This document shows positions 296 through 24,330 of a stretch of 32,000 nt of DNA, piece after piece. This stretch comes from Promethearchaeota archaeon (lineage in GTDB: Archaea > Asgardarchaeota > Hermodarchaeia > Hermodarchaeales > Hermodarchaeaceae): the NCBI GenBank assembly GCA_048938295.1, contig JBHLMI010000001.1, positions 59,449 to 91,448 on the forward strand, read 5' to 3'. Below the pieces are notes generated by a model. The model ran no database searches. It saw only the letters and a program-made list of their open reading frames with translations, and was not told where the DNA came from. The position numbers and the translations under genes are program-made. The stretch's first letter is position 1. Each line of letters opens with the position of its first letter.

Positions 296-1624
296 CTAGT
301 TCTTAACCCCTAAATAGCGGAGCGTGGAAAGTGCGACGACTTTGGTCACTTTGACCAAATCGTCTATCGCGATATTTTCATCGGAGGTATGCGCAGAAGT
401 CATGATCCCTGGGCCATACACCACTGTGGATTCAATTCCCGCACGACGGAGCAGTCGACCATCCGTGGCATAGGGAACAAGGAAGTACACTGAGGGACCA
501 GTGATTTCGGTTGACGCGTTAAACACCGTTGTCACAAATGGGTTTTGTGTGTAATTGGGCACTGAATTTCCTTCAAAGGACTCGATGATTTTAATGTCGC
601 AGTTGTCTCCAATGTCTTGTTGTTGTGCGTGTTTGTGTATGAAATCTACCATCTCTTGGGGCTTTTGACCGGGTAAAATTCGGAAATCTAGCTGCGCTTC
701 ACAACGGTCTGGAACTATGTTTGGAGCCACTCCACCAGTAATAGTTCCGATATTCATGGTCGTTGTAGTAAGTCCTTCGATTCCAGCTGCCAATGGATTA
801 GGCTCATCTCCCTGAAAGATAAAGGATTCTAGCAGTTTTGGTTCTGTGTTCAAGCTAGCTGCGAACTGGGCAATAATCGCTTCACGGGTAACCGGAGGAG
901 GTATCGTGGGCAGTTTTTCGGTTTGTAGCGATTTAAGCAGCTTCATCATCATAGTGATCGCATTCTTGCCTGCTGCTGGAATACTGCCATGAGCCTTCTC
1001 TCCTTTGGTGGTTATTTTCAGCCAAACTGGTCCTTTTTCTCCAATATTCACTGCATACCCAAGACGGCCAATACCTGAAGGTTCTGCGACGAGCGCTGCG
1101 TTGGCTTTAATTTTTTTCCAGGCTTTGTCAATGCACCACATTGTTCCTAATCGCCCTTGCCGTTCTTCATCCCCCACGGCATTAAGAATCAGAGTTCCCT
1201 TCAACGGCACCTCTAAATCATGAAGTGCACTCATCGCTATCGTTAGGCAGGCTACTCCGCCTTTCATATCCACGGCTCCCCGTCCATAAATGTGACCGTC
1301 ACGGATTTCCGCTGCAAAGGGTTCCACTGTCCAATCTTCTCCCGGCGGAACGACATCGACATGACCATTGAACAGCATGCGCTTCCCCTTGTTCGCTTCC
1401 CAGGTGGCGATGAGATTATCGATGTTCCGGTGTGAAGAAATATATTCGGTAGCTATCCCACGCTTTTCCAGCGTTTTACCGACACAATGTGCCACTTCCG
1501 CCTCTCCACGCGTTTGCCGGTCCCAACTTGGAATCCGAATCATATCCTGACATAATCGAACCAGTTCATCTTGCAGCTCATCAATATAGTTGAGAATTTT
1601 TTGCTCCCAGTCTTCTGCTGTCAT
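296..1624 (-). CDS. M20A family metallopeptidase/deacylase (ArgE/DapE-like)
   Basis: Metal-binding motifs LFNGHVDVVP, GRGAVDMKGG, GDEE, VAEPS, AHGS and AHTSDE; 442 aa. Confidence 0.9.
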   Translation of the reverse strand: MTAEDWEQKILNYIDELQDELVRLCQDMIRIPSWDRQTRGEAEVAHCVGKTLEKRGIATEYISSHRNIDNLIATWEANKGKRMLFNGHVDVVPPGEDWTVEPFAAEIRDGHIYGRGAVDMKGGVACLTIAMSALHDLEVPLKGTLILNAVGDEERQGRLGTMWCIDKAWKKIKANAALVAEPSGIGRLGYAVNIGEKGPVWLKITTKGEKAHGSIPAAGKNAITMMMKLLKSLQTEKLPTIPPPVTREAIIAQFAASLNTEPKLLESFIFQGDEPNPLAAGIEGLTTTTMNIGTITGGVAPNIVPDRCEAQLDFRILPGQKPQEMVDFIHKHAQQQDIGDNCDIKIIESFEGNSVPNYTQNPFVTTVFNASTEITGPSVYFLVPYATDGRLLRRAGIESTVVYGPGIMTSAHTSDENIAIDDLVKVTKVVALSTLRYLGVKN

Positions 1625-1744: not shown

Positions 1745-2728
1745 ATGCCTCAGGAGATAAATGTCGAAGAGTGGCTTTGCAGCATCTCAGAGAAAGCCCA
1801 ACTGGCTATGCTCTTAGACATTCTCACTCCCAAACCTGGTAATGTACACCGATACAAGGACCACCATGATACGAGACTCGTTCATTTTGCGGCTAGTATC
1901 GCACGGTTAGCCCACCCAATCTATCAGGCAGCACGTTGGGGCTATCAACGCAACCAATCGTTGCAAGGTCCCTCGAAATTGGGAGAATTAAACAAACTCG
2001 CGCTACAGGCCTCAATGAAACCCCATAGGAAAAATACACTCCTTGGGACCATCCTTCTCATTATCCCCCTTACTGTGGCTGCAGGTTATGAAATTCCACG
2101 TCCCAACTGGTCACCATCAACCATTCGCCAAAGCCTTTCGCAAATCCTTTATCAGTCCTCAATCGATGACGCCCTAGAACTCATTCGCACCCTCCAAATC
2201 GCTAATCCAGGAGGAGCAAAACCGAAGACGCCTCAATGGACTGAGGAATCCCAAGCCTTCGATTTCCAATCTCCACGAACAATCGAACTAATTCGTCGCG
2301 AGAAATACACCCTCATTGATTTACAGTCCCTGGCTGCACCCTTTGACGCTATAGCTGAAGAATACACCACAGATTTCGGTTATATCTTCGATCAATTATA
2401 TCCAAGGTTCCTTGAGGCGTTAAACCAGCACTCCCGTGTCGAAGACGCAGTTCTCATTTCCTATCTTTGGGCACTGGGTCAACGTCCTGATACCTTCATC
2501 CAACGCAAGGCTGGACCCGACGCGGCCCAGCAAGTCACAAAAGAAGCGCATAAACTCCATAACCGAATCCTCCATTTACCAGAGGACCACTGGCAGAAAG
2601 AACTCAATGTCTTTGATGATTACCTACGATCCCAAGGCTCTCGACTTAACCCAGGTACGACGGCGGATCTCATCTCAGCAGCAGTTTTTCTTGCCCTTTT
2701 ACTTGATAGACTCAAGCTAATTTTCTAG
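1745..2728 (+). CDS. citG: Triphosphoribosyl-dephospho-CoA synthase-like protein (archaeal CitG family)
   Basis: TPKPGNVHR...D, NTLLGTILL..PL, DTFIQRK.G and the C-terminal NPGTTADL motif. Confidence 0.85.
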   Translation: MPQEINVEEWLCSISEKAQLAMLLDILTPKPGNVHRYKDHHDTRLVHFAASIARLAHPIYQAARWGYQRNQSLQGPSKLGELNKLALQASMKPHRKNTLLGTILLIIPLTVAAGYEIPRPNWSPSTIRQSLSQILYQSSIDDALELIRTLQIANPGGAKPKTPQWTEESQAFDFQSPRTIELIRREKYTLIDLQSLAAPFDAIAEEYTTDFGYIFDQLYPRFLEALNQHSRVEDAVLISYLWALGQRPDTFIQRKAGPDAAQQVTKEAHKLHNRILHLPEDHWQKELNVFDDYLRSQGSRLNPGTTADLISAAVFLALLLDRLKLIF

Positions 2729-2775: not shown

Positions 2776-4260
2776 TCAAGGCTCCCATTTGAAGGGGTGT
2801 TTTGCATATTCTTTATCAGAGAGGAGTTCATCGATGCTCGGGCGTCCTTCGATGGCACGGCGGAGGGCATGACGCATTGCCTTGTAGTTGTTAATGAGGA
2901 TGCGTTTCCGATCCACTGCTGTTGGATGCACAAAGACGGTTGCGACAATCAGTAATTGGTCCACAGCGGATTTGGGGATGAGTCCTTCTTCAACCGAATC
3001 CATCACCGCTTTGGCACATCCGGTTTGAGCTGGACCACCGAATAAGCTAGCCTGGTGCATGCTCCGATTAGCTACTGTTGGTACAAGGAGGGTTTCAGGT
3101 TTGACCATAAGATTGGGTTCGAGAATAGCGAGAAGGGGTTCCATGCGTTCCTTCGGTGCCGCTTTTGCCTGGGCAAAGGCATATCCTACAGGGCCATCCT
3201 TGCGTCCAATCATTAGGTCGATATGGGCGACTTCAGCACCAGACCCAGCAAGTCCTTCTCCAACCTTAATGGAGAAGTCTTTGATGTACTCGGGTGTGAA
3301 CCCGATGACGCCGAATCGCGCTTCTAGAGGCTCTTTGGGTTCTACTTCGATTTTCACCGGTTGGCGGTCGATTTTTCCAAGCTTCTCTAGTTCAATGCGG
3401 ATTTCCTCACGGTTTTCGTAGGTGAGAACTCCGCCAAACGTTAAGGGGAGTCGAGGCTTACCCACCGAGACACCCATCATATTCAATCCCGCCTTTGTAC
3501 CTGCAGCTCCGGATCCCACAATTAATCGTGTGAGTTTCTGGACCTTGAGCTGCAAAGCCACAGCTTCTGAATATTTTTTGGCTTGCACTTTCTGCAACAT
3601 ATCGAGCCAGATGTCCCCAATGAGTTGTGCGCTAGCCAGAATCGCTCCTGAACACCCTGAAGCGAGGGCTGGAAACACGACCTCGTCATGGCCGACTAGC
3701 ACGTTAATCTTTGATCCGACTTTTTCCAAGACCGCAAGGATGAGTTTGAGTTGTCCACTGGAATCTTTGATGCCCACAATATTCTCCAGGTCGGCTAAGT
3801 CTTCAACGATTTGCCAGGGTATATCTAAACCCGTGCACTGGGGAATGTTGTAGAGGATAATTGGCAATCCCACCTCATTCACAAGACGATAATGTTCATA
3901 CAATCCACGCAACGTGGGACGCATATAGTAGGGAGTAACTACAAGGCAAGCGTCAGCCCCCGCTTTCTTGGCATACTCAACAAGTGTGATCGTTGTTTTC
4001 GTGCTACTGGCACCAGCACCTGCAATGACGGGGACCTTTCCCGCTGCCTCCTCTATGGCAAGCTTGACCACGTGTTTATGTTCTTCAATAGTCAAGCTAG
4101 TGAACTCGCCGGTTGTTCCTGCTGGGACAAGGCCGGTGATTCCTAGCTTGTCAATGCAATGGCGAATCAGCCTGCGAAATGCAGTTTCATCAACCTTTGC
4201 ACCATCCTTTGTGAATGGGGTAACGAGTGCGGGGTTTACCCCACCTGGTTTAAATCCCAT
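2776..4260 (-). CDS. fae: Fusion of a DapA-family class I aldolase (aa ~1-297) and formaldehyde-activating enzyme Fae (aa ~330-494)
   Basis: N-domain: TPF, GTTGEF, TPYY, LYNIP and the Schiff-base GIKDSSG (K165). C-domain: VGEGLAG..AEVAHIDLMIG (H346), PNLMVKP.TLLVP, AQ..CAKAVMDSVEEG.IP, VFVHP. GGAGAG RBS upstream. Confidence 0.9.
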   Translation of the reverse strand: MGFKPGGVNPALVTPFTKDGAKVDETAFRRLIRHCIDKLGITGLVPAGTTGEFTSLTIEEHKHVVKLAIEEAAGKVPVIAGAGASSTKTTITLVEYAKKAGADACLVVTPYYMRPTLRGLYEHYRLVNEVGLPIILYNIPQCTGLDIPWQIVEDLADLENIVGIKDSSGQLKLILAVLEKVGSKINVLVGHDEVVFPALASGCSGAILASAQLIGDIWLDMLQKVQAKKYSEAVALQLKVQKLTRLIVGSGAAGTKAGLNMMGVSVGKPRLPLTFGGVLTYENREEIRIELEKLGKIDRQPVKIEVEPKEPLEARFGVIGFTPEYIKDFSIKVGEGLAGSGAEVAHIDLMIGRKDGPVGYAFAQAKAAPKERMEPLLAILEPNLMVKPETLLVPTVANRSMHQASLFGGPAQTGCAKAVMDSVEEGLIPKSAVDQLLIVATVFVHPTAVDRKRILINNYKAMRHALRRAIEGRPSIDELLSDKEYAKHPFKWEP

Positions 4261-4284
4261 CTGGCAACTCTCCTATTTACTCGC

Positions 4285-5232
4285 TTAAGGCTGAGGAATG
4301 GCTAAATCCTTCGCCCCAAGCTTTGACAATTTCGCTTCTGGGTAATTATCTTGGATGAGGTTCCGAACGATTTCAGCCCACTTGACCTTTTCACGGGCTA
4401 GAAAACTGAGTCCATCAATCGATGACCAAGGTGTGTATAACGCCATACTGGGTCCGGGTTCAAATTTATAATAAACCGGCTGAACGCATCGGGTGATTTC
4501 CGCAGCTTCATAGAATCGATTGAAGCCTCCAAAGCTGGGCATCAACATGATGTGGATGTCAATGGGTAGGTTAGTGGCTTGACGGATAGCGGCAAGTTGG
4601 GGAACTGTCATGTCAGCAACGGGGTTGAAGCTCCCTGCCCCTAGTTGTTCAAGCAGTTTGCCTCCTGCTGGGGAGGCGTGACCTGCGAAGATGCTGACTT
4701 TGAAGGTGATGTCCTTGGGGATTTCTCCAATCTCTTTGAGTTTGTTCAGCGCCCATAGGAGTCCTTCGTCAATCACTAAGAACCCGCGGAAACCTAAGTT
4801 AATTCCACGTTTGATATCGGATATCACTTCTACAAGTTTATCGGCACCTCGAAATCGCATACCTGAAATAACTCCGTCTGAGGTTACGAGTTGTCGACCA
4901 ATATCCCAGCTTGTTCGGGGACCAGGGGTTAGGATGACTTCCATTTGTGCGTCATGCGCTAGTTGGGCAAATTTCTTGAGTTCCTTATCATCAAGCAGAG
5001 TGGCTCCCATCACCACACTGATAAGCCGGTGCACTGGCACATCTCGCTTATCAGATTCATCGATCAGTGCTTCTAAGACCTCTGGGCGTTCAACGCCAGA
5101 GATTTCAATACGATAGCCGGCTCCATCTGGAAACCGCTTTTCGCTTGTCGGCAGATCATATGCATCTTGTCCGGGTAGCCCAATTTTTTCAAGAGCTTTC
5201 CGGACTTTTTCATAAGATTTCAAACTCACCAT
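4285..5232 (-). CDS. U32-peptidase-like TIM-barrel protein of unknown function
   Basis: LEQLGAGSFNP..DMTVPQLAAIRQATNLPIDIHI resembles the U32 barrel segment. It has only one Cys and ends 24 bp upstream of the dapA-fae start. Confidence 0.55.
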   Translation of the reverse strand: MVSLKSYEKVRKALEKIGLPGQDAYDLPTSEKRFPDGAGYRIEISGVERPEVLEALIDESDKRDVPVHRLISVVMGATLLDDKELKKFAQLAHDAQMEVILTPGPRTSWDIGRQLVTSDGVISGMRFRGADKLVEVISDIKRGINLGFRGFLVIDEGLLWALNKLKEIGEIPKDITFKVSIFAGHASPAGGKLLEQLGAGSFNPVADMTVPQLAAIRQATNLPIDIHIMLMPSFGGFNRFYEAAEITRCVQPVYYKFEPGPSMALYTPWSSIDGLSFLAREKVKWAEIVRNLIQDNYPEAKLSKLGAKDLAIPQP

Positions 5233-5458
5233 GAGGAGTCCCTCGGATAGGTGGGTTTTGCTTGTTGCTGTTTAAAAAAGGTTGAGCTTGTTGCGTTACG
5301 GGAGCTTTTTTCAATCCATATGGGAAAGCATACACGGCTCTGTCTACATGGCTATCTTAAACCCGCCGAGACCTCCGAATTGGAGTTGCGAGGAAAGTGG
5401 GTTCAGTCAAGACGGAGCCACACCTCTTCCTTAATCCGCCGTATTCGAGTTGTATGTC

Positions 5459-6595
5459 ATGGAGATTACAAATCTTATCACACCGGCACTGCTCATTGAT
5501 AAAACCAAACTTCTGCGAAACATTCAGCTGATGGCTGAAAAAGCGCAACGAAATGGGGTTCAACTTCGACCACATATCAAAACCCACAAATGTATAGAAC
5601 TCGCCAATCTCCAAACCGAATATGGTGCAGCCGGCCTCACTGTGTCCACATTAGGACAGGCTGCAGTCTTCATAGACAACGGGTTCTCAGACATCACCTT
5701 AGCTTATCCTATCATTCCAGACAAATTCCCGGCTCTGCTCGAATTAGCTCAAAGAGCTCGGATAAATGTGGTCACAGATCACCCGGTCATTGCAACTCAA
5801 CTTGAAGCCCAGTGTATTGCCGCAGACATTAGGCTTAATGTGCTAATCAAAATCGACTGTGGGTACCATCGATGTGGAGTCGACCCCAAGGGTCCAATGG
5901 CACTCAAACTCACCAAGCAAATCGCTGATGCTTCCCATCTCAGCTTCGGAGGAATTCTAACTCATGCAGGCCATGCGTATCATGCCCGTTCGCAAGAGGA
6001 AATCAAAACCATAGCAGACATTGAACAAGAAGTGATGCTTCAATTTACGAAAACACTCCAAGCAAACGGACTAGCCCCTGAAACCGTATCAATCGGTTCT
6101 ACTCCTACTGCGATGCAGGCCCCCAACTTCAAAACGGGAATAACTGAAATTCGCCCTGGAAACTATGTCTTCTTTGATAATACACAAGCCTTACTTGGCT
6201 CCTGTTCACTGGCAGATTGCGCACTCACAGTATTAACAAGTGTGGTAAGTGTCCAGGATTCACATATCGTCGTTGATGCAGGCGCTACTGCACTCTCAAA
6301 GGATGCAGGAGCCACGCAAATTCCTACACATCGAGGATACGGAATCGTTCTCAAGCTTGGAGATGAATTCAAACCAACTGCAGCTCAAATCACTCAGCTC
6401 TCCCAAGAACATGGCCAAATAAAGTTCCCCCATTCCCCCCATCCCTCCTACACGCCTGGGGATCAACTACGGATAATCCCAAACCATTCTTGTCTCACTA
6501 CCAACCTTTTTGACCAATATTACATCATCGAAAACAATCGCGTCATCACTACGTGGCCTATACACCGCAACCGGCTCCACTCTCCGCTAGCCTAA
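5459..6595 (+). CDS. Fold-type III PLP enzyme, D-serine dehydratase (DSD1)/D-threonine aldolase family
   Basis: TPALLID, LRPHIKTHK (PLP Lys), THAGHAY, GSTPT, EIRPGNYVFFD, LSQEHG and PNHSC (metal ligands). ATG 5459 preferred over TTG 5450. Confidence 0.88.
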   Translation: MEITNLITPALLIDKTKLLRNIQLMAEKAQRNGVQLRPHIKTHKCIELANLQTEYGAAGLTVSTLGQAAVFIDNGFSDITLAYPIIPDKFPALLELAQRARINVVTDHPVIATQLEAQCIAADIRLNVLIKIDCGYHRCGVDPKGPMALKLTKQIADASHLSFGGILTHAGHAYHARSQEEIKTIADIEQEVMLQFTKTLQANGLAPETVSIGSTPTAMQAPNFKTGITEIRPGNYVFFDNTQALLGSCSLADCALTVLTSVVSVQDSHIVVDAGATALSKDAGATQIPTHRGYGIVLKLGDEFKPTAAQITQLSQEHGQIKFPHSPHPSYTPGDQLRIIPNHSCLTTNLFDQYYIIENNRVITTWPIHRNRLHSPLA

Positions 6596-6612
6596 ATCAA
6601 ATCCAAGGAAGC

Positions 6613-7563
6613 GTGACTAAAATAAAACAAACTGTGAACCCTCCCCCCTCGTTACAAGAACGCTTCCAAATACTACTTGGCGATGAATATCCACAATTCC
6701 TTGGTGCGATATCAAAACCACCTGCGCATTTCGTCCGAATCAATACTCTGAAAACAAATATCAAGGCAGGTCTTGAGAAACTAAAGCAACTCGACATCAC
6801 CTACTCACCACTCCCTTGGTACCCAGCGGGATTTCGGATAACAGGAAACCATAAACCCATCCCATCCATCAAAGAATATTCTCTTGGATGGTACTACATC
6901 CAAGAAGGCGGAAGTATGCTCCCCCCCGTCGTTCTCAACCCACAATCCCATGATTCTGTCCTCGACATGTGTGCTGCTCCCGGTTCAAAAACAACACAAA
7001 TGGCCCAAATGATGAACAATAAAGGCGCCATTATCGCCAATGACCGATCCTTCCGCCGCCTAACCAGTCTGGGACACAATATTCAAGTCTGTGGAGTTAT
7101 CAACACCATCACACTATGTCAGGATGGACGTCATCTTTCAACCCGACTCCCGCTTCAGTTTGACCGAATCTTAGTTGATGTACCCTGTACTGCTTCAGGG
7201 CGTTTTCGGAGTAACCCGCCACAATTTGAAGTTCCAGACCTACGACGCATCCTTGGAATACAAAGCATACAAAAAGGTCTGCTAACCGCGGGATTTCGTC
7301 TCCTCAACCCGGGAGGCTCACTAGTCTATTCCACCTGTAGTATACACCCTGAAGAAAATGAAGCAGTGGTTGACCATCTGCTTAGCAGTTCATCTGACGC
7401 TGTCTTAGAACTCCCTCAACTTTCTAACTTGCACAGCCACCCCGGAATCACACAATGGACTGAGACCCATTTTTCAAAAAAGCTCACTACATGTTTACGC
7501 ATCTACCCACACGATAATGACACTGACAGCTTTTTCATAGCCCTATTAAGGAAAGAAGCATGA
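6613..7563 (+). CDS. RsmB/NOP2/RsmF-family RNA m5C methyltransferase
   Basis: YIQEGGSM, VLDMCAAPGSKT, DRILVDVPCTASG and YSTCSIHPEENE (both catalytic Cys). Start uncertain: GTG 6613 chosen over 6553, which would overlap the upstream gene. Confidence 0.9.
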   Translation: MTKIKQTVNPPPSLQERFQILLGDEYPQFLGAISKPPAHFVRINTLKTNIKAGLEKLKQLDITYSPLPWYPAGFRITGNHKPIPSIKEYSLGWYYIQEGGSMLPPVVLNPQSHDSVLDMCAAPGSKTTQMAQMMNNKGAIIANDRSFRRLTSLGHNIQVCGVINTITLCQDGRHLSTRLPLQFDRILVDVPCTASGRFRSNPPQFEVPDLRRILGIQSIQKGLLTAGFRLLNPGGSLVYSTCSIHPEENEAVVDHLLSSSSDAVLELPQLSNLHSHPGITQWTETHFSKKLTTCLRIYPHDNDTDSFFIALLRKEA

Positions 7564-8060
7564 TGTCACAAACAAAATCATTAACCGTGGATCTTGAAAG
7601 AGAAATCCAAGTCTGGCAACTGCTTAAGAAACAATTTGGCATCCCAAAACTTACAGGATATCGATTCTTGAAATCTGGGCAAAAACGCATCCGTCTAATC
7701 AGCGAAGCTGCCTTCAACCTTCTTTCCAAGCTTCCCTACACCGGAACAACAGGACTCTATATCGGTGAGTATTCACCGAATGCCTTTCGACTCTCAATGG
7801 ATGGTGCCCAGCTACTCGGACACCGTGCTACAAAACAGAAAGTGAAATTAACTGATGCCCAAGCTCAACAGTGGTTACAAGGGGAATCGATTAATTATGA
7901 AGACAAACAAAGAGGGTATGTAATCGTCGCTTACAACAACATAATCCTTGGATGCGGCAGTCTCTCTAAAGGTCTGCTTCGCAGCTTCGTTCCAAAAATC
8001 CGACGTCTCAAAACATCCGATTCGCTTCCTGGTGGAGTAAACACATGTCAGTTACCATAA
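7560..8060 (+). CDS. Nip7-like / RsmF C-terminal PUA-domain protein
   Basis: FGIP...GLYIG...FRLSMDGAQLLG...V.L...QAQQWLQGESI...GYVIVAY....LGCG...LRSFVPK; ATGA overlap with the methyltransferase. Confidence 0.7.
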   Translation: MMSQTKSLTVDLEREIQVWQLLKKQFGIPKLTGYRFLKSGQKRIRLISEAAFNLLSKLPYTGTTGLYIGEYSPNAFRLSMDGAQLLGHRATKQKVKLTDAQAQQWLQGESINYEDKQRGYVIVAYNNIILGCGSLSKGLLRSFVPKIRRLKTSDSLPGGVNTCQLP

Positions 8061-9412
8061 CCATTTACGGAGGCGCTGGAGAAATCGGCGCTAACAAAAT
8101 CCTAATCCATGATAAAGGCTACGATACGAAGTTCTTCCTCGACTTCGGAAAATCCTTTGAAACCATGCGCGAGTTCTACGATTTCCCTGTCGCTCCACAA
8201 TCTCTTGATGAGCTAATTCAAGTAGGTGGTACACCCGATATCCCAAACCTTTACCATCACCCCTCTAAGAATGACCTATCTGCTTCAGACATTGATGCCG
8301 TACTTCTCTCTCATGCGCACACAGATCATAGTGGCTATCTGCCATTACTCAATCGGAGCATTCCCATCCACATGGGGGAGTGCACTCGCACCATCTTTGA
8401 GGCTCGACTCCTGGGAACTCGAAAAACCTTTGACACAGACATTGAAGGACAAACCATCACAACCTTCCGCACAGGTGACCGAGTGAAAATCAATGGAGTC
8501 GAGATTCAACCAGTCCATGTGGATCATAGTATCCCCGCGGCCTATGGCTTCATCATCTACTGTTCAGAAATGACCGTTGTTTATACCGGCGATTTCCGTC
8601 GCCATGGCACGCTACCTCAGCTGACTGAAGATTTTGTTGAGACAATCCAAACGAGTGGACCACCCGATGTTATACTCTGCGAAGGCACGAACATCGTAAA
8701 AGCCGAACTAGCGACTGAGCAAGAAGTCCTCGAAAAAGTCACAACGATCGTTCAAGGCTGCAAGGGTCTCACGATAGCGGATTTCTCTGAACCGGACTTT
8801 GACCGGTTTCGCACCATGCTATCGGCTGGCACCAGTAACGACCGTAAACTGGTTCTTGAACCACGACGAATGTGGATACTGAACGCCATCAACCATTGCC
8901 GAGATCTACAGACCCCAAGCATCGCCAATGATACAGAAATTCTCTGGTTCGATGCCAAGAAAAAACGCATCTCGAAGTACGAAAAATTACTCCAAGATGC
9001 CGATCCACCGATCAAGAATCTTGATGAGCGTGCAATTACGGCAAAAGACCTTCATAAACAACCTAAGCGATACGTGTTCTGTAGTAGCTTTGGCAGTATC
9101 AGCACCATCCAAAAAATCAAACCACCTGAATCAGGTATCTATCTTCTGAGTGCATCTGAACCCTTCAATGAAGAGAGCGAACTCAGTTTCGATAAACTCC
9201 TAAATTGGCTCGCTCTTTCTGGACTAGCGATGTACAATGCCCATTGCTCCGGGCACATCCATCCTCTACAGCTTTGCCAGACGCTAGAGGAAATCCGACC
9301 TAAGACACTGGTTCCCATTCATACAGAAGCACCGGAGCTCTTCCAAAGGTTCATGAAAAGTACAGGAATTCCTGTACAAATCCCCCAAAAAGCCGTTCCT
9401 CTCAAATTCTAG
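8045..9412 (+). CDS. Metallo-beta-lactamase/beta-CASP ribonuclease (RNase J-like)
   Basis: YGGAGEIGANK, FLDFG, LSHAHTDH, VDHSIP.AYG, YTGDFR.HG, CEGT and C-terminal HCSGH. Confidence 0.8.
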   Translation: MSVTITIYGGAGEIGANKILIHDKGYDTKFFLDFGKSFETMREFYDFPVAPQSLDELIQVGGTPDIPNLYHHPSKNDLSASDIDAVLLSHAHTDHSGYLPLLNRSIPIHMGECTRTIFEARLLGTRKTFDTDIEGQTITTFRTGDRVKINGVEIQPVHVDHSIPAAYGFIIYCSEMTVVYTGDFRRHGTLPQLTEDFVETIQTSGPPDVILCEGTNIVKAELATEQEVLEKVTTIVQGCKGLTIADFSEPDFDRFRTMLSAGTSNDRKLVLEPRRMWILNAINHCRDLQTPSIANDTEILWFDAKKKRISKYEKLLQDADPPIKNLDERAITAKDLHKQPKRYVFCSSFGSISTIQKIKPPESGIYLLSASEPFNEESELSFDKLLNWLALSGLAMYNAHCSGHIHPLQLCQTLEEIRPKTLVPIHTEAPELFQRFMKSTGIPVQIPQKAVPLKF

Positions 9413-22949: not shown

Positions 22950-23110
22950 TGATTTGCCGATGCGTAACAGTGAACTATCCCTGCATTAGCTCAGGGATTT
23001 CCATCGAGTCCACTACCGGTAGAACGTGGGGTAGGGCTGTGTGTCGATGCAAGCCATTCCAAAACTGCTGTAATGGCTCCCCGTTCACAGGGGGTTGTTG
23101 CAATAGGAAC
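22950..23110 (-). ncRNA. Predicted TnpB omegaRNA (scaffold overlapping the tnpB 3' end plus guide from the flank)
   Basis: Stem-loops CCCC/GGGG (23079-23093), AGCCATT/AATGGCT (23052-23078) and ATCCCTG/CAGGGAT (22977-22998), then TTCAC. Predicted guide TGTTACGCATCGGCAAATCA (22969-22950). Boundaries are inferred. Confidence 0.55.
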
Positions 23111-24330
23111 CGCACCATGATATTGACCGCGGCATTCTGATCCCGGTCAAAGGAGGTTCCACAATTGCATTGAATAACTCGCTCAGATAATTTTCGGGCC
23201 CTCTTCTTGCCGCATAAACAGCATCGCATGGTGGTCTGAGCCTCATCAATTCTTATTACACGCTTACCTACTTTTTTGGCTTTGTAGGTTAAGAATTGGA
23301 CAAAGCGCCCCAAGAAGCCGGTGTTCTGCAGCGAATGATTCAACGTGCGATTGGCGGCATCCTGTCGCTGACACCCCGATGCTCGCTTTTTCTTTGCCAT
23401 GCGTTTCACCGCGAGCTCGCCAACGATGAGGGTTTTGGCTCGCGTATTGTTTACTACCACTTTAGAAATTTTATGTTGGAAGTCTCTTAATTGGTTGGTG
23501 AGCTTGTGTTGCATTTTCTGCCCCTTCTGCTGATAAAAGTACCATTTTTTACTGAATTTTTTGCAGTGATCACGTCGAGATTGCACCTGCCGAAGTTTGT
23601 CTTTCCAGTACAGGTCGGAGCGACGATTGCGAATTTGGAAAAACCGTCCTTGCTGGTTTACAGCAGTGACCAAGTTAATTACCCCTATGTCGATGGCTTG
23701 ATATCGGCTATTGTCTACAAACGGCAGTACAGCCACATCGTAGGTAATGGCAACGAACCATCGTCTTTGTCGATCCTGAAACAGGTCCACTTGTTTGATT
23801 CGACCTTTCGCGGTCGGTAACCAGGGCAAGGTAAATTCTAGGTTAACTTCTGTGGGGTGGTGGTGGGAAAAACGAATCCGTTTGTTCTCGATATCCAAGG
23901 TGAAGCCGGATTGATTGTAGCACAGTGTGGTAAAGTAGTGTTTACCTTTGAAACGGGGTGGTCGGGCCCGAAAGTCGCCGCCGCGCCAGCGGGCAAAGAA
24001 GGACTTGTAATCTGCATCGAGTCGGCGAAGAGTCATTTGCAAGACCTTGGAGTAAACCCAGGTGTATGCGGGAAATTTAGCCTTAAGGGCTGGGAGGGCG
24101 TTTTGTTGTTGGGTGTACGTGATGTGGGTTCGCGCAGTGGTCGGCTTCGTCTGATTAATTGTCCACTGGTGGCGCCGTTCAGCTAAGGCGAAGTTGTAGA
24201 GATGCCGGCATTGTTCGGATAAGGCCCACAAGACTTGAACTTGTGTTGTCGTAGGAGCGATGCGGATTTTTTGCGTTAACAACATCGAGGTCATGCTAAA
24301 GTTAGAAAGGTCTTGGAAATTTTTCAAGCT
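22970..24330 (-). mobile_element. IS200/IS605-family element carrying only tnpB (IS1341-like); left end not defined
   Basis: Right-end hairpin GAAATCCCTG-AGCTAATG-CAGGGATAG followed by TTCAC; no tnpA nearby; inserted between divergent GDPD and mrp. Confidence 0.75.
22975..24294 (-). CDS. tnpB: TnpB RNA-guided endonuclease
   Basis: N-terminal HTH (QKIRIAP...CRHLYNFAL), RPPRFK, RuvC-I AIDIG, zinc finger CCLCG...CNCG and RuvC-III DRDQNAAVNI. Start probably ATG 24294 or 24285; the ORF track gives 24327. Confidence 0.93.
   Translation of the reverse strand: MTSMLLTQKIRIAPTTTQVQVLWALSEQCRHLYNFALAERRHQWTINQTKPTTARTHITYTQQQNALPALKAKFPAYTWVYSKVLQMTLRRLDADYKSFFARWRGGDFRARPPRFKGKHYFTTLCYNQSGFTLDIENKRIRFSHHHPTEVNLEFTLPWLPTAKGRIKQVDLFQDRQRRWFVAITYDVAVLPFVDNSRYQAIDIGVINLVTAVNQQGRFFQIRNRRSDLYWKDKLRQVQSRRDHCKKFSKKWYFYQQKGQKMQHKLTNQLRDFQHKISKVVVNNTRAKTLIVGELAVKRMAKKKRASGCQRQDAANRTLNHSLQNTGFLGRFVQFLTYKAKKVGKRVIRIDEAQTTMRCCLCGKKRARKLSERVIQCNCGTSFDRDQNAAVNIMVRFLLQQPPVNGEPLQQFWNGLHRHTALPHVLPVVDSMEIPELMQG

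Follow-up and report, generated by a model that had tools for sequence, protein, structure and literature searches.

The gene described here lies at the left of a 32,000-nucleotide stretch of DNA (the window; contig JBHLMI010000001.1, positions 59,449 to 91,448) from a Promethearchaeota archaeon of the family Hermodarchaeaceae. Its 494 amino acid product (P0001) joins a DHDPS-family class I aldolase to a Fae domain, and we propose, tentatively, that this fusion is a bifunctional C1-dependent 4-hydroxy-2-oxobutanoate (HOB) synthase, biosynthetic in direction and feeding homoserine. The proposal is built on the architecture of the protein, its catalytic residues, the loss of the residues with which DHDPS binds its aldehyde, the pathway genes absent from the genome, the presence of genes for ThrC and for steps dependent on tetrahydromethanopterin (H4MPT), and the distribution and neighbourhoods of the fusion gene. 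The gene and its parts are as follows:

2776-4260, minus strand: aldolase-Fae fusion gene (P0001), 494 amino acids (list and translation of open reading frames; Pfam DHDPS and Fae)
3439-4248, minus strand: DHDPS-family class I (Schiff-base) aldolase domain, residues 5-274 (Pfam PF00701, E-value 3.9e-71)
3766-3768, minus strand: codon of Lys165, the Schiff-base lysine, corresponding to Lys161 of Escherichia coli DapA (E. coli DapA alignment)
3835-3837, minus strand: codon of Cys142, at the position of Arg138 of E. coli DapA (same alignment)
3265-3438, minus strand: C-terminal helices of the aldolase and inter-domain linker, residues 275-332 (alignment A1, AF2 model)
2791-3264, minus strand: Fae domain, residues 333-490 (Pfam PF08714, E-value 7.6e-56; TIGR03126 above its cut-off)
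3223-3225, minus strand: codon of His346, the conserved Fae histidine of EVAHIDL (1Y5Y alignment)

A first-pass annotation of the window had described a complete 494-residue open reading frame with a full aldolase barrel and a full Fae domain, including the EVAHIDL histidine, and Pfam, NCBIfam and the 1Y5Y alignment all agree; the position it gave is right, while the strand, which is the minus strand, had been left out. The fusion scores above the cut-off of the NCBIfam dapA model (TIGR00674; 229.6 bits, cut-off 206.15), and its Fae half above that of one_C_fae (TIGR03126; 195.1 bits, cut-off 118.05). The Pfam Fae match (189 bits versus 27) covers profile positions 1-158 of 159. The cut-offs for N-acetylneuraminate lyase (NanA) are not reached (TIGR00683, 143.7 versus 382; NF003164, 157.2 versus 281), and the scores for KdgD, HpaI-like and Fae-Hps proteins likewise fall well below the NCBIfam cut-offs. 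The AF2 model (pLDDT 85) consists of two confident domains and a low-confidence linker (pLDDT <50, residues 315-329). Its aldolase barrel superposes on solved DHDPS structures with TM scores of 0.94-0.95 and an rmsd of 1.6-1.8 Å, and the solved structures closest to this half are all DHDPS. Within residues 275-332 a stretch reading GG.LTYE.REE.R.ELEK.GKI is conserved, the remainder being modelled at low confidence.

The barrel is 33% identical to DapA of E. coli K-12 (BLASTP). As the first-pass annotation had also stated, the alignment of the two proteins shows the pyruvate-activating residues kept, namely GTTGE (Thr44/45), Tyr107, Tyr133 (Y137 here) and Lys161 (K165 here), and those that recognise aspartate semialdehyde (ASA) lacking: Arg138, which in DapA binds the carboxylate of ASA, is replaced by Cys142 (YNVPSRTG versus YNIPQCTG), and Asn248 by Gly251 (the EPNPIPVK segment versus GSGAAGTK). 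Two alignments, one of 15 and one of 21 fusion proteins, show C, T, A, V or L at position 142, and this variability argues that there is no selection at the site for any charged contact. Lys165, the Thr-Tyr-Tyr proton relay (Thr44-Tyr107-Tyr133) and, in the other half, His346 are invariant in alignment A1, in which both active sites are fully conserved throughout the single-fusion family of Bathyarchaeia and Asgard archaea. The Fae of Methylobacterium extorquens (PDB 1Y5Y) is collinear end to end with the Fae half (E-value 1.3e-32), and EVAHIDL is kept. Fae condenses formaldehyde with H4MPT; it is a homopentamer in which H4MPT is bound between subunits. Judged by these residues, both halves of the fusion look catalytically intact.

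The window lies on contig 2 of a 2.52-Mb metagenome-assembled genome (MAG) that is 91.6% complete. The data sets listed as containing this locus are DNA from sediment metagenomes, with no RNA data set among them. The fusion is the sole DHDPS-family gene of this genome; a separate canonical dapA, which the first-pass annotation had advised looking for, was not found in it. Hidden Markov model (HMM) searches of the same 91.6%-complete MAG, in which the absence of a gene is not proof that the organism lacks it, gave no match to DapB_C (PF05173), Hom (PF00742) or archaeal-type Asd (TIGR00978); in control genomes Hom and Asd were positive in 14/14 and DapB_C in 11/14. Hom and Ask also went unmatched in the genome by tblastn with Bathyarchaeia queries. 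Among the genes present are an equivalog-level threonine synthase (NF006050; 354.5 bits, cut-off 303) and the H4MPT genes for which a check had been advised, represented by Mch (PF02289; 406.6 bits) and by a second Fae gene, a canonical Fae-Hps. The earlier claim that the fusion is not a lysine-pathway DHDPS is supported, since Arg138 and Asn248 are absent and neither Asd nor DapB was found. Every database checked labels the fusion DapA; despite the HMM pass it should not be filed under that name, since it lacks two defining residues and the pathway context.

A canonical ThrB was not found in this genome either, TIGR00191 giving only 33.7 bits and tblastn with a Bathyarchaeia ThrB (from genome G036, below) being negative. 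An alternative homoserine kinase was sought with TIGR02535, and the match (272 bits versus 446) is probably ApgM. The thrC gene of the genome (contig C61, locus L010) is preceded by an open reading frame of 250 amino acids at 572-1324, which ends 3 nt upstream, is translationally coupled to it and belongs to no Pfam or NCBIfam family; because the genome has no recognisable homoserine kinase, this product is a candidate for one.

Since the genome has ThrC without recognisable Asd or Hom, a supply of homoserine by the fusion via HOB was examined. In the scheme that we propose, the Fae domain would interconvert methylene-H4MPT with H4MPT and enzyme-held formaldehyde. The DapA-derived domain would form a Schiff base between Lys165 and pyruvate, the enamine of which would attack the formaldehyde to yield HOB, and an ordinary aminotransferase would convert HOB to L-homoserine. 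Homoserine, then threonine and possibly methionine, could in this way be made without aspartate kinase, Asd or Hom. The interconversion of pyruvate plus formaldehyde with HOB seems the most economical chemistry for a protein with these two sets of residues; the substrates, the direction, any channelling and the role of the gene directly upstream of the fusion (the partner, see below) are inferences. An engineered precedent exists in E. coli, in which a HOB aldolase, endogenous aminotransferases and ThrB/ThrC lead from pyruvate and formaldehyde to homoserine and threonine (PMC8879981).

The distribution of the fusion was compared with that of homoserine dehydrogenase (Hom) across 121 genomes of Bathyarchaeia and 151 of Asgard archaea, all of them MAGs at least 80% complete; counts are given in the order both genes / fusion only / Hom only / neither, with the odds ratio (OR). 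In the Bathyarchaeia, where Hom occurs in 76 genomes and the fusion in 38, the two are largely exclusive (7/31/69/14, OR 0.046). The same holds when only ThrB-positive genomes are considered (3/9/43/7, OR 0.054, p 8e-5), the fusion being present in 9/16 of those that lack Hom versus 3/46 of those that have it. Stratification by HisD leaves the exclusion in place (OR 0.036 in HisD-positive and 0.079 in HisD-negative genomes). The pattern is replicated in the Asgard archaea, with Hom in 62 genomes, the fusion in 72 and an OR of 0.084 (10/62/52/27). Restricted to HisD-positive Asgard genomes the counts are 8/13/30/3 (OR 0.062, p 6e-5), Hom being found in 30/33 non-carriers versus 8/21 carriers of the fusion; HisD itself, used as the control, shows no association with the fusion in this phylum (OR 0.57, p 0.13). 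Asgard families are complementary, family f6 having the fusion in 31/32 genomes and Hom in 1/32, and family f4 the fusion in 0/17 and Hom in 12/17. ThrC-like genes are retained in carrier families, in 9/9 genomes of the genus to which our genome belongs and in 30/32 of f6.

Two gene contexts in Bathyarchaeia bear on the same question. In genome G036 the fusion is followed on one strand, after 197 nt, by thrB (NF002288; 298 bits versus 194), thrC (TIGR00260; 376 bits) and asnS, and neither hom nor asd was found in G036. The fusion of this genome is a full-length orthologue with 59% identity and all motifs kept. Among the genomes returned by a search with the gene order of G036 are three (G012, G018 and G062) in which thrB, thrC and hom stand on one strand; in G018 and G062 the contig also carries asd. 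By comparison, the fusion in G036 seems to have taken the place of hom in situ. The second context is that of genome G115 (locus L106, contig C8), where an intact hom at 5560-6585 is directly followed at 6702-8196 by a broken fusion gene, split and interrupted by two TGA codons and one TAA; to judge by its reading frame, the fusion beside this hom is decaying. The Hom association and the gene contexts speak, short of proof, for a fusion that is tied to the supply of homoserine.

Several points weigh against the HOB synthase proposal. HisD is rarer in Bathyarchaeia that carry the fusion (10/38) than in non-carriers (52/83; OR 0.21), so that carriers tend to be poor in biosynthetic genes and their lifestyle confounds the comparison in part. 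The genomes counted are related MAGs, the Asgard association reaches only p 0.06 at the genus level, 17 genomes hold both the fusion and Hom, and the fusion-thrB-thrC arrangement is seen in one genome only. Canonical ThrB occurs in only 12/38 Bathyarchaeia carriers, our own genome having yielded none, and a consumer of homoserine is unproven in most carriers. Canonical ThrB (13/151) is also missing from most Hom-positive Asgard genomes, which makes the canonical ThrB model a poor indicator there. Chloroflexi, too, carry the partner and fusion as a module, and they are not, to our knowledge, users of H4MPT. Lastly, the HOB scheme leaves no room for the conserved TIM-barrel partner, which is the largest gap in any mechanism.

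The best database matches of the fusion include more than 100 full-length homologues of 492-494 amino acids, those with a name being called 4-hydroxy-tetrahydrodipicolinate synthase. So many full-length copies show the gene to be conserved and exclude an assembly artefact. The species representatives of GTDB yielded at least 548 fusion matches, and the top 80 consist almost wholly of Bathyarchaeia, together with four Hermodarchaeota-type MAGs; the closest public gene is from a Hermodarchaeota MAG (95% identity). Divergent representatives have 35-52% identity, and many of these are tandem pairs. Such pairs (loci L108, L109, L111 and L113; proteins P0123-P0137) are found in Asgard families with two matches per genome and in Chloroflexi. 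In many of the pairs the lysine is missing from one copy and the Fae histidine from its neighbour. Among the representatives aligned, P0127 and P0134 have lost the Schiff-base lysine, and P0123, P0128, P0132, P0136 and P0137 the Fae histidine; these complementary losses suggest that the paired copies may form a heteromeric enzyme. The loci of the divergent proteins P0122, P0124 and P0125 held tandem fusion pairs only, with no threonine or methionine genes seen in them.

The partner gene, which the first-pass annotation had missed, lies 24 nt upstream of the fusion and is probably co-transcribed with it. The features of this region are:

4285-5232, minus strand: partner gene, 315 amino acids, predicted U32-like TIM barrel, 24 nt upstream of the fusion
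4270-4274, minus strand: AGGAG, putative ribosome-binding site 9 nt before the fusion ATG, inside the 24-nt gap (sequence reading)
5271-5279, minus strand: TTTTTTAAA, TATA-box-like, about 40 nt upstream of the partner ATG, candidate promoter of a two-gene operon (sequence reading)

The 315-residue partner matched no Pfam or NCBIfam family, with no Pfam match even at an E-value of 0.1. Its homologues (n=1993) have 65-70% identity across Asgard archaea, Bathyarchaeia and Chloroflexi, with His68, His185 and His227 invariant, and in each of the contexts read (L008, L111, L113) the gene immediately precedes the single fusion or the pair. The AF2 model (pLDDT 81) is a (beta/alpha)8 TIM barrel, and fold searches (Foldseek on PDB, VIA-align wide, AFDB clusters and ESM Atlas) returned TIM barrels of a generic kind. 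The scores of class II FBP aldolase (Z 14.5), CutC (14.4), U32 (13.3) and MTHFR (12.5) are so close that no function can be assigned from the fold. PF01136 (Peptidase_U32) is carried by 17-23% of the members of the partner's ESM Atlas clusters, a hint that the modelled barrel may be remotely related to U32. The Peptidase_U32 proteins UbiU/V, TrhP and RlhA use a cysteine cluster for an Fe-S centre.

In the Bathyarchaeia nearest to our protein, a divergent 427 amino acid neighbour takes the place of the 315-residue partner. The two align with an hhalign probability of 51% (E-value 1.5e-4), and the longer protein is possibly a remote homologue of the shorter; the 427-residue type was not found by A3 in G001, G036 or G077. 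When 80 Bathyarchaeia loci were clustered in search of a substrate, genes for TrmI, the 427-residue protein, a 248-residue protein and small helix-turn-helix proteins recurred, a context that proved uninformative. In 62/80 of the loci (L025-L100) the first of these, which encodes a tRNA m1A methyltransferase of the TrmI/GCD14 type, lies some 10 nt downstream of the fusion in the same orientation.

Another explanation, which we consider rather doubtful, is that the fusion acts on some other aldehyde or 2-oxoacid, with the Fae domain there to bind a pterin or to hold an oligomer together, in a pathway shared with the U32-like partner, for example in cofactor biosynthesis or RNA modification, the Hom pattern being a correlate at the level of lineages. 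It would account for a partner that is more strongly conserved than the fusion (65-70% identity between archaea and Chloroflexi) and stands upstream in the contexts read, for the tandem copies, whose losses of the lysine or the histidine mean that either domain can be a non-catalytic scaffold, and for the RNA methyltransferase genes nearby (TrmI behind the fusion in the clustered loci, RsmF-like genes beside the operon), as well as for the adjacent CitG-like gene. The pocket motif G-H/Y-D-E of the fusion also has what we take to be a resemblance to the sugar-binding GxDE motif of N-acetylneuraminate lyases. Yet no gene context offers a candidate substrate, both active sites are fully conserved in the single-fusion family, and the stratified Hom association in two phyla, the thrB-thrC adjacency and the hom adjacency would all be left as coincidence.

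The chemistry of the HOB synthase could also run in reverse, HOB being cleaved to pyruvate and formaldehyde and the latter trapped by Fae as methylene-H4MPT, in a catabolic or C1-feeding role like that of Fae-Hps; the HOB would come from homoserine or a C4 acid and might possibly be made by the TIM-barrel partner. We regard this as unlikely. Fae-Hps, the known Fae fusion, which is present in this genome, is thought to trap formaldehyde from its lyase partner, the Bathyarchaeia carriers are poor in biosynthetic genes and look organotrophic by the HisD control, and the conserved partner enzyme could supply the substrate. Against these stand a near-core distribution (31/32 genomes of one Asgard family), which would be unusual for a peripheral catabolic enzyme, and the thrB-thrC association and hom exclusion, which fit supply better than degradation. 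The first-pass annotation had offered homoserine-derived HOB feeding methylene-H4MPT as its example; this direction found no support, no source of homoserine or HOB being recognisable in the genome and the comparative data pointing to homoserine supply.

We consider it very improbable that the databases are right and the fusion is a true 4-hydroxy-tetrahydrodipicolinate synthase (DapA) with an incidental Fae domain: the TIGR00674 score, the solved structures nearest to it and its standing as the only DHDPS-family gene of the genome speak for this, but Arg138 and Asn248 are gone, position 138 is not conserved, neither Asd to make the substrate nor DapB to use the product was found in the genome, and Bathyarchaeia carriers often have separate DapA-like genes of 300 amino acids. 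Replacement of PanB by the fusion, as an H4MPT-dependent ketopantoate hydroxymethyltransferase, was also considered and rejected, the genome having two good PanB genes.

Compared by domain architecture, the closest known system is Fae-Hps (NF009833). Both proteins combine Fae and a carbon-carbon lyase that handles formaldehyde in one polypeptide, in H4MPT-using anaerobic archaea. The lyase of Fae-Hps is an Hps of the OMP-decarboxylase fold, whereas that of the fusion is a DHDPS-family class I Schiff-base pyruvate aldolase, and Fae is N-terminal in the former and C-terminal in the latter; the fusion scores 160.6 bits against the NF009833 cut-off of 274, through its Fae half only. With DapA/DHDPS (TIGR00674; E. 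coli DapA, PDB 1DHP) the fusion has in common the fold, 33-38% identity and Thr44/45, Tyr107, Tyr133 and Lys161; unlike them it lacks Arg138 and Asn248, bears a C-terminal extension of 220 amino acids that includes Fae, and resides in a genome without DAP-pathway context. PanB (PF02548), in whose reaction C3 of a 2-oxoacid receives a hydroxymethyl group from a methylene-pterin, is a functional analogy only, its fold and mechanism being unrelated to those of the fusion. The reaction proposed here is the same as that of the HOB aldolase in the synthetic homoserine cycle, for which the promiscuous E. coli enzymes RhmA/YfaU are used (He et al. 2020, reviewed in PMC8879981). RhmA is a class II metal-dependent enzyme used with free formaldehyde in an engineered setting, whereas the fusion is of class I, has a built-in H4MPT-linked module and belongs to a natural genome, its activity being a prediction. 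A full-text literature search found no paper on an aldolase-Fae fusion or a natural HOB route; we class the protein as a further kind of Fae-lyase fusion, and should the homoserine route prove real, its pathway would be a novelty in natural metabolism.

The genes around the partner-fusion operon were also inspected. Just downstream of the fusion, at 1745-2728 (plus strand), is a homologue of the CitG-like triphosphoribosyl-dephospho-CoA synthase, and farther downstream, at 296-1624 (minus strand), an M20 deacylase of the ArgE/DapE family; both are syntenic in the related locus L008. CitG homologues are tied to H4MPT biosynthesis clusters in methylotrophs. Divergent from the operon, at 5450-6595 (plus strand), is a gene for a pyridoxal phosphate (PLP) enzyme resembling D-threonine aldolase and D-serine dehydratase (Ala_racemase_N and D-ser_dehydrat domains), which scores 165 bits against the BhcC model (cut-off 690) and is absent at that position in L008. 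An RsmB/F-type RNA m5C methyltransferase with a PUA domain is encoded as two open reading frames at 6553-7563 and 7560-8060 (plus strand) that overlap by 4 nt; the split (321 + 156 amino acids) recurs in L008 and is therefore probably natural, not a frameshift. A TnpB-family RNA-guided endonuclease gene (NF040570, 208.6 bits) at 22975-24327 (minus strand) is a sign of an IS200/IS605-type element.

New in this work are the strong negative association between the fusion and Hom in Bathyarchaeia and Asgard archaea, the fusion-thrB-thrC cluster of G036 and the decaying fusion beside hom in G115. With somewhat less assurance than we attach to the enzyme itself, it may be that much of the Bathyarchaeia and of the Asgard archaea (Hermod-, Thor- and Loki-type) make homoserine from pyruvate and C1 units derived from the Wood-Ljungdahl pathway, and not from aspartate. 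Nature would then have its own version of the synthetic homoserine cycle, one in which a non-orthologous enzyme replaces aspartate kinase, Asd and Hom. The fusion occurs in hundreds of species of two highly abundant groups of sediment archaea, including the Asgard relatives of eukaryotes. If the route is real, the amino-acid metabolism of the carrier lineages would be wired directly to the C1 (Wood-Ljungdahl/H4MPT) pool, and reconstructions in which carriers are auxotrophic for threonine or homoserine, or produce lysine, would be wrong. A natural formaldehyde-to-homoserine step would then exist with built-in handling of toxic formaldehyde, a step for which synthetic methylotrophy has used promiscuous enzymes. 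Even with another substrate, the two- or three-gene module of a U32-like barrel and one or two aldolase-Fae proteins would be a piece of core anaerobe metabolism.

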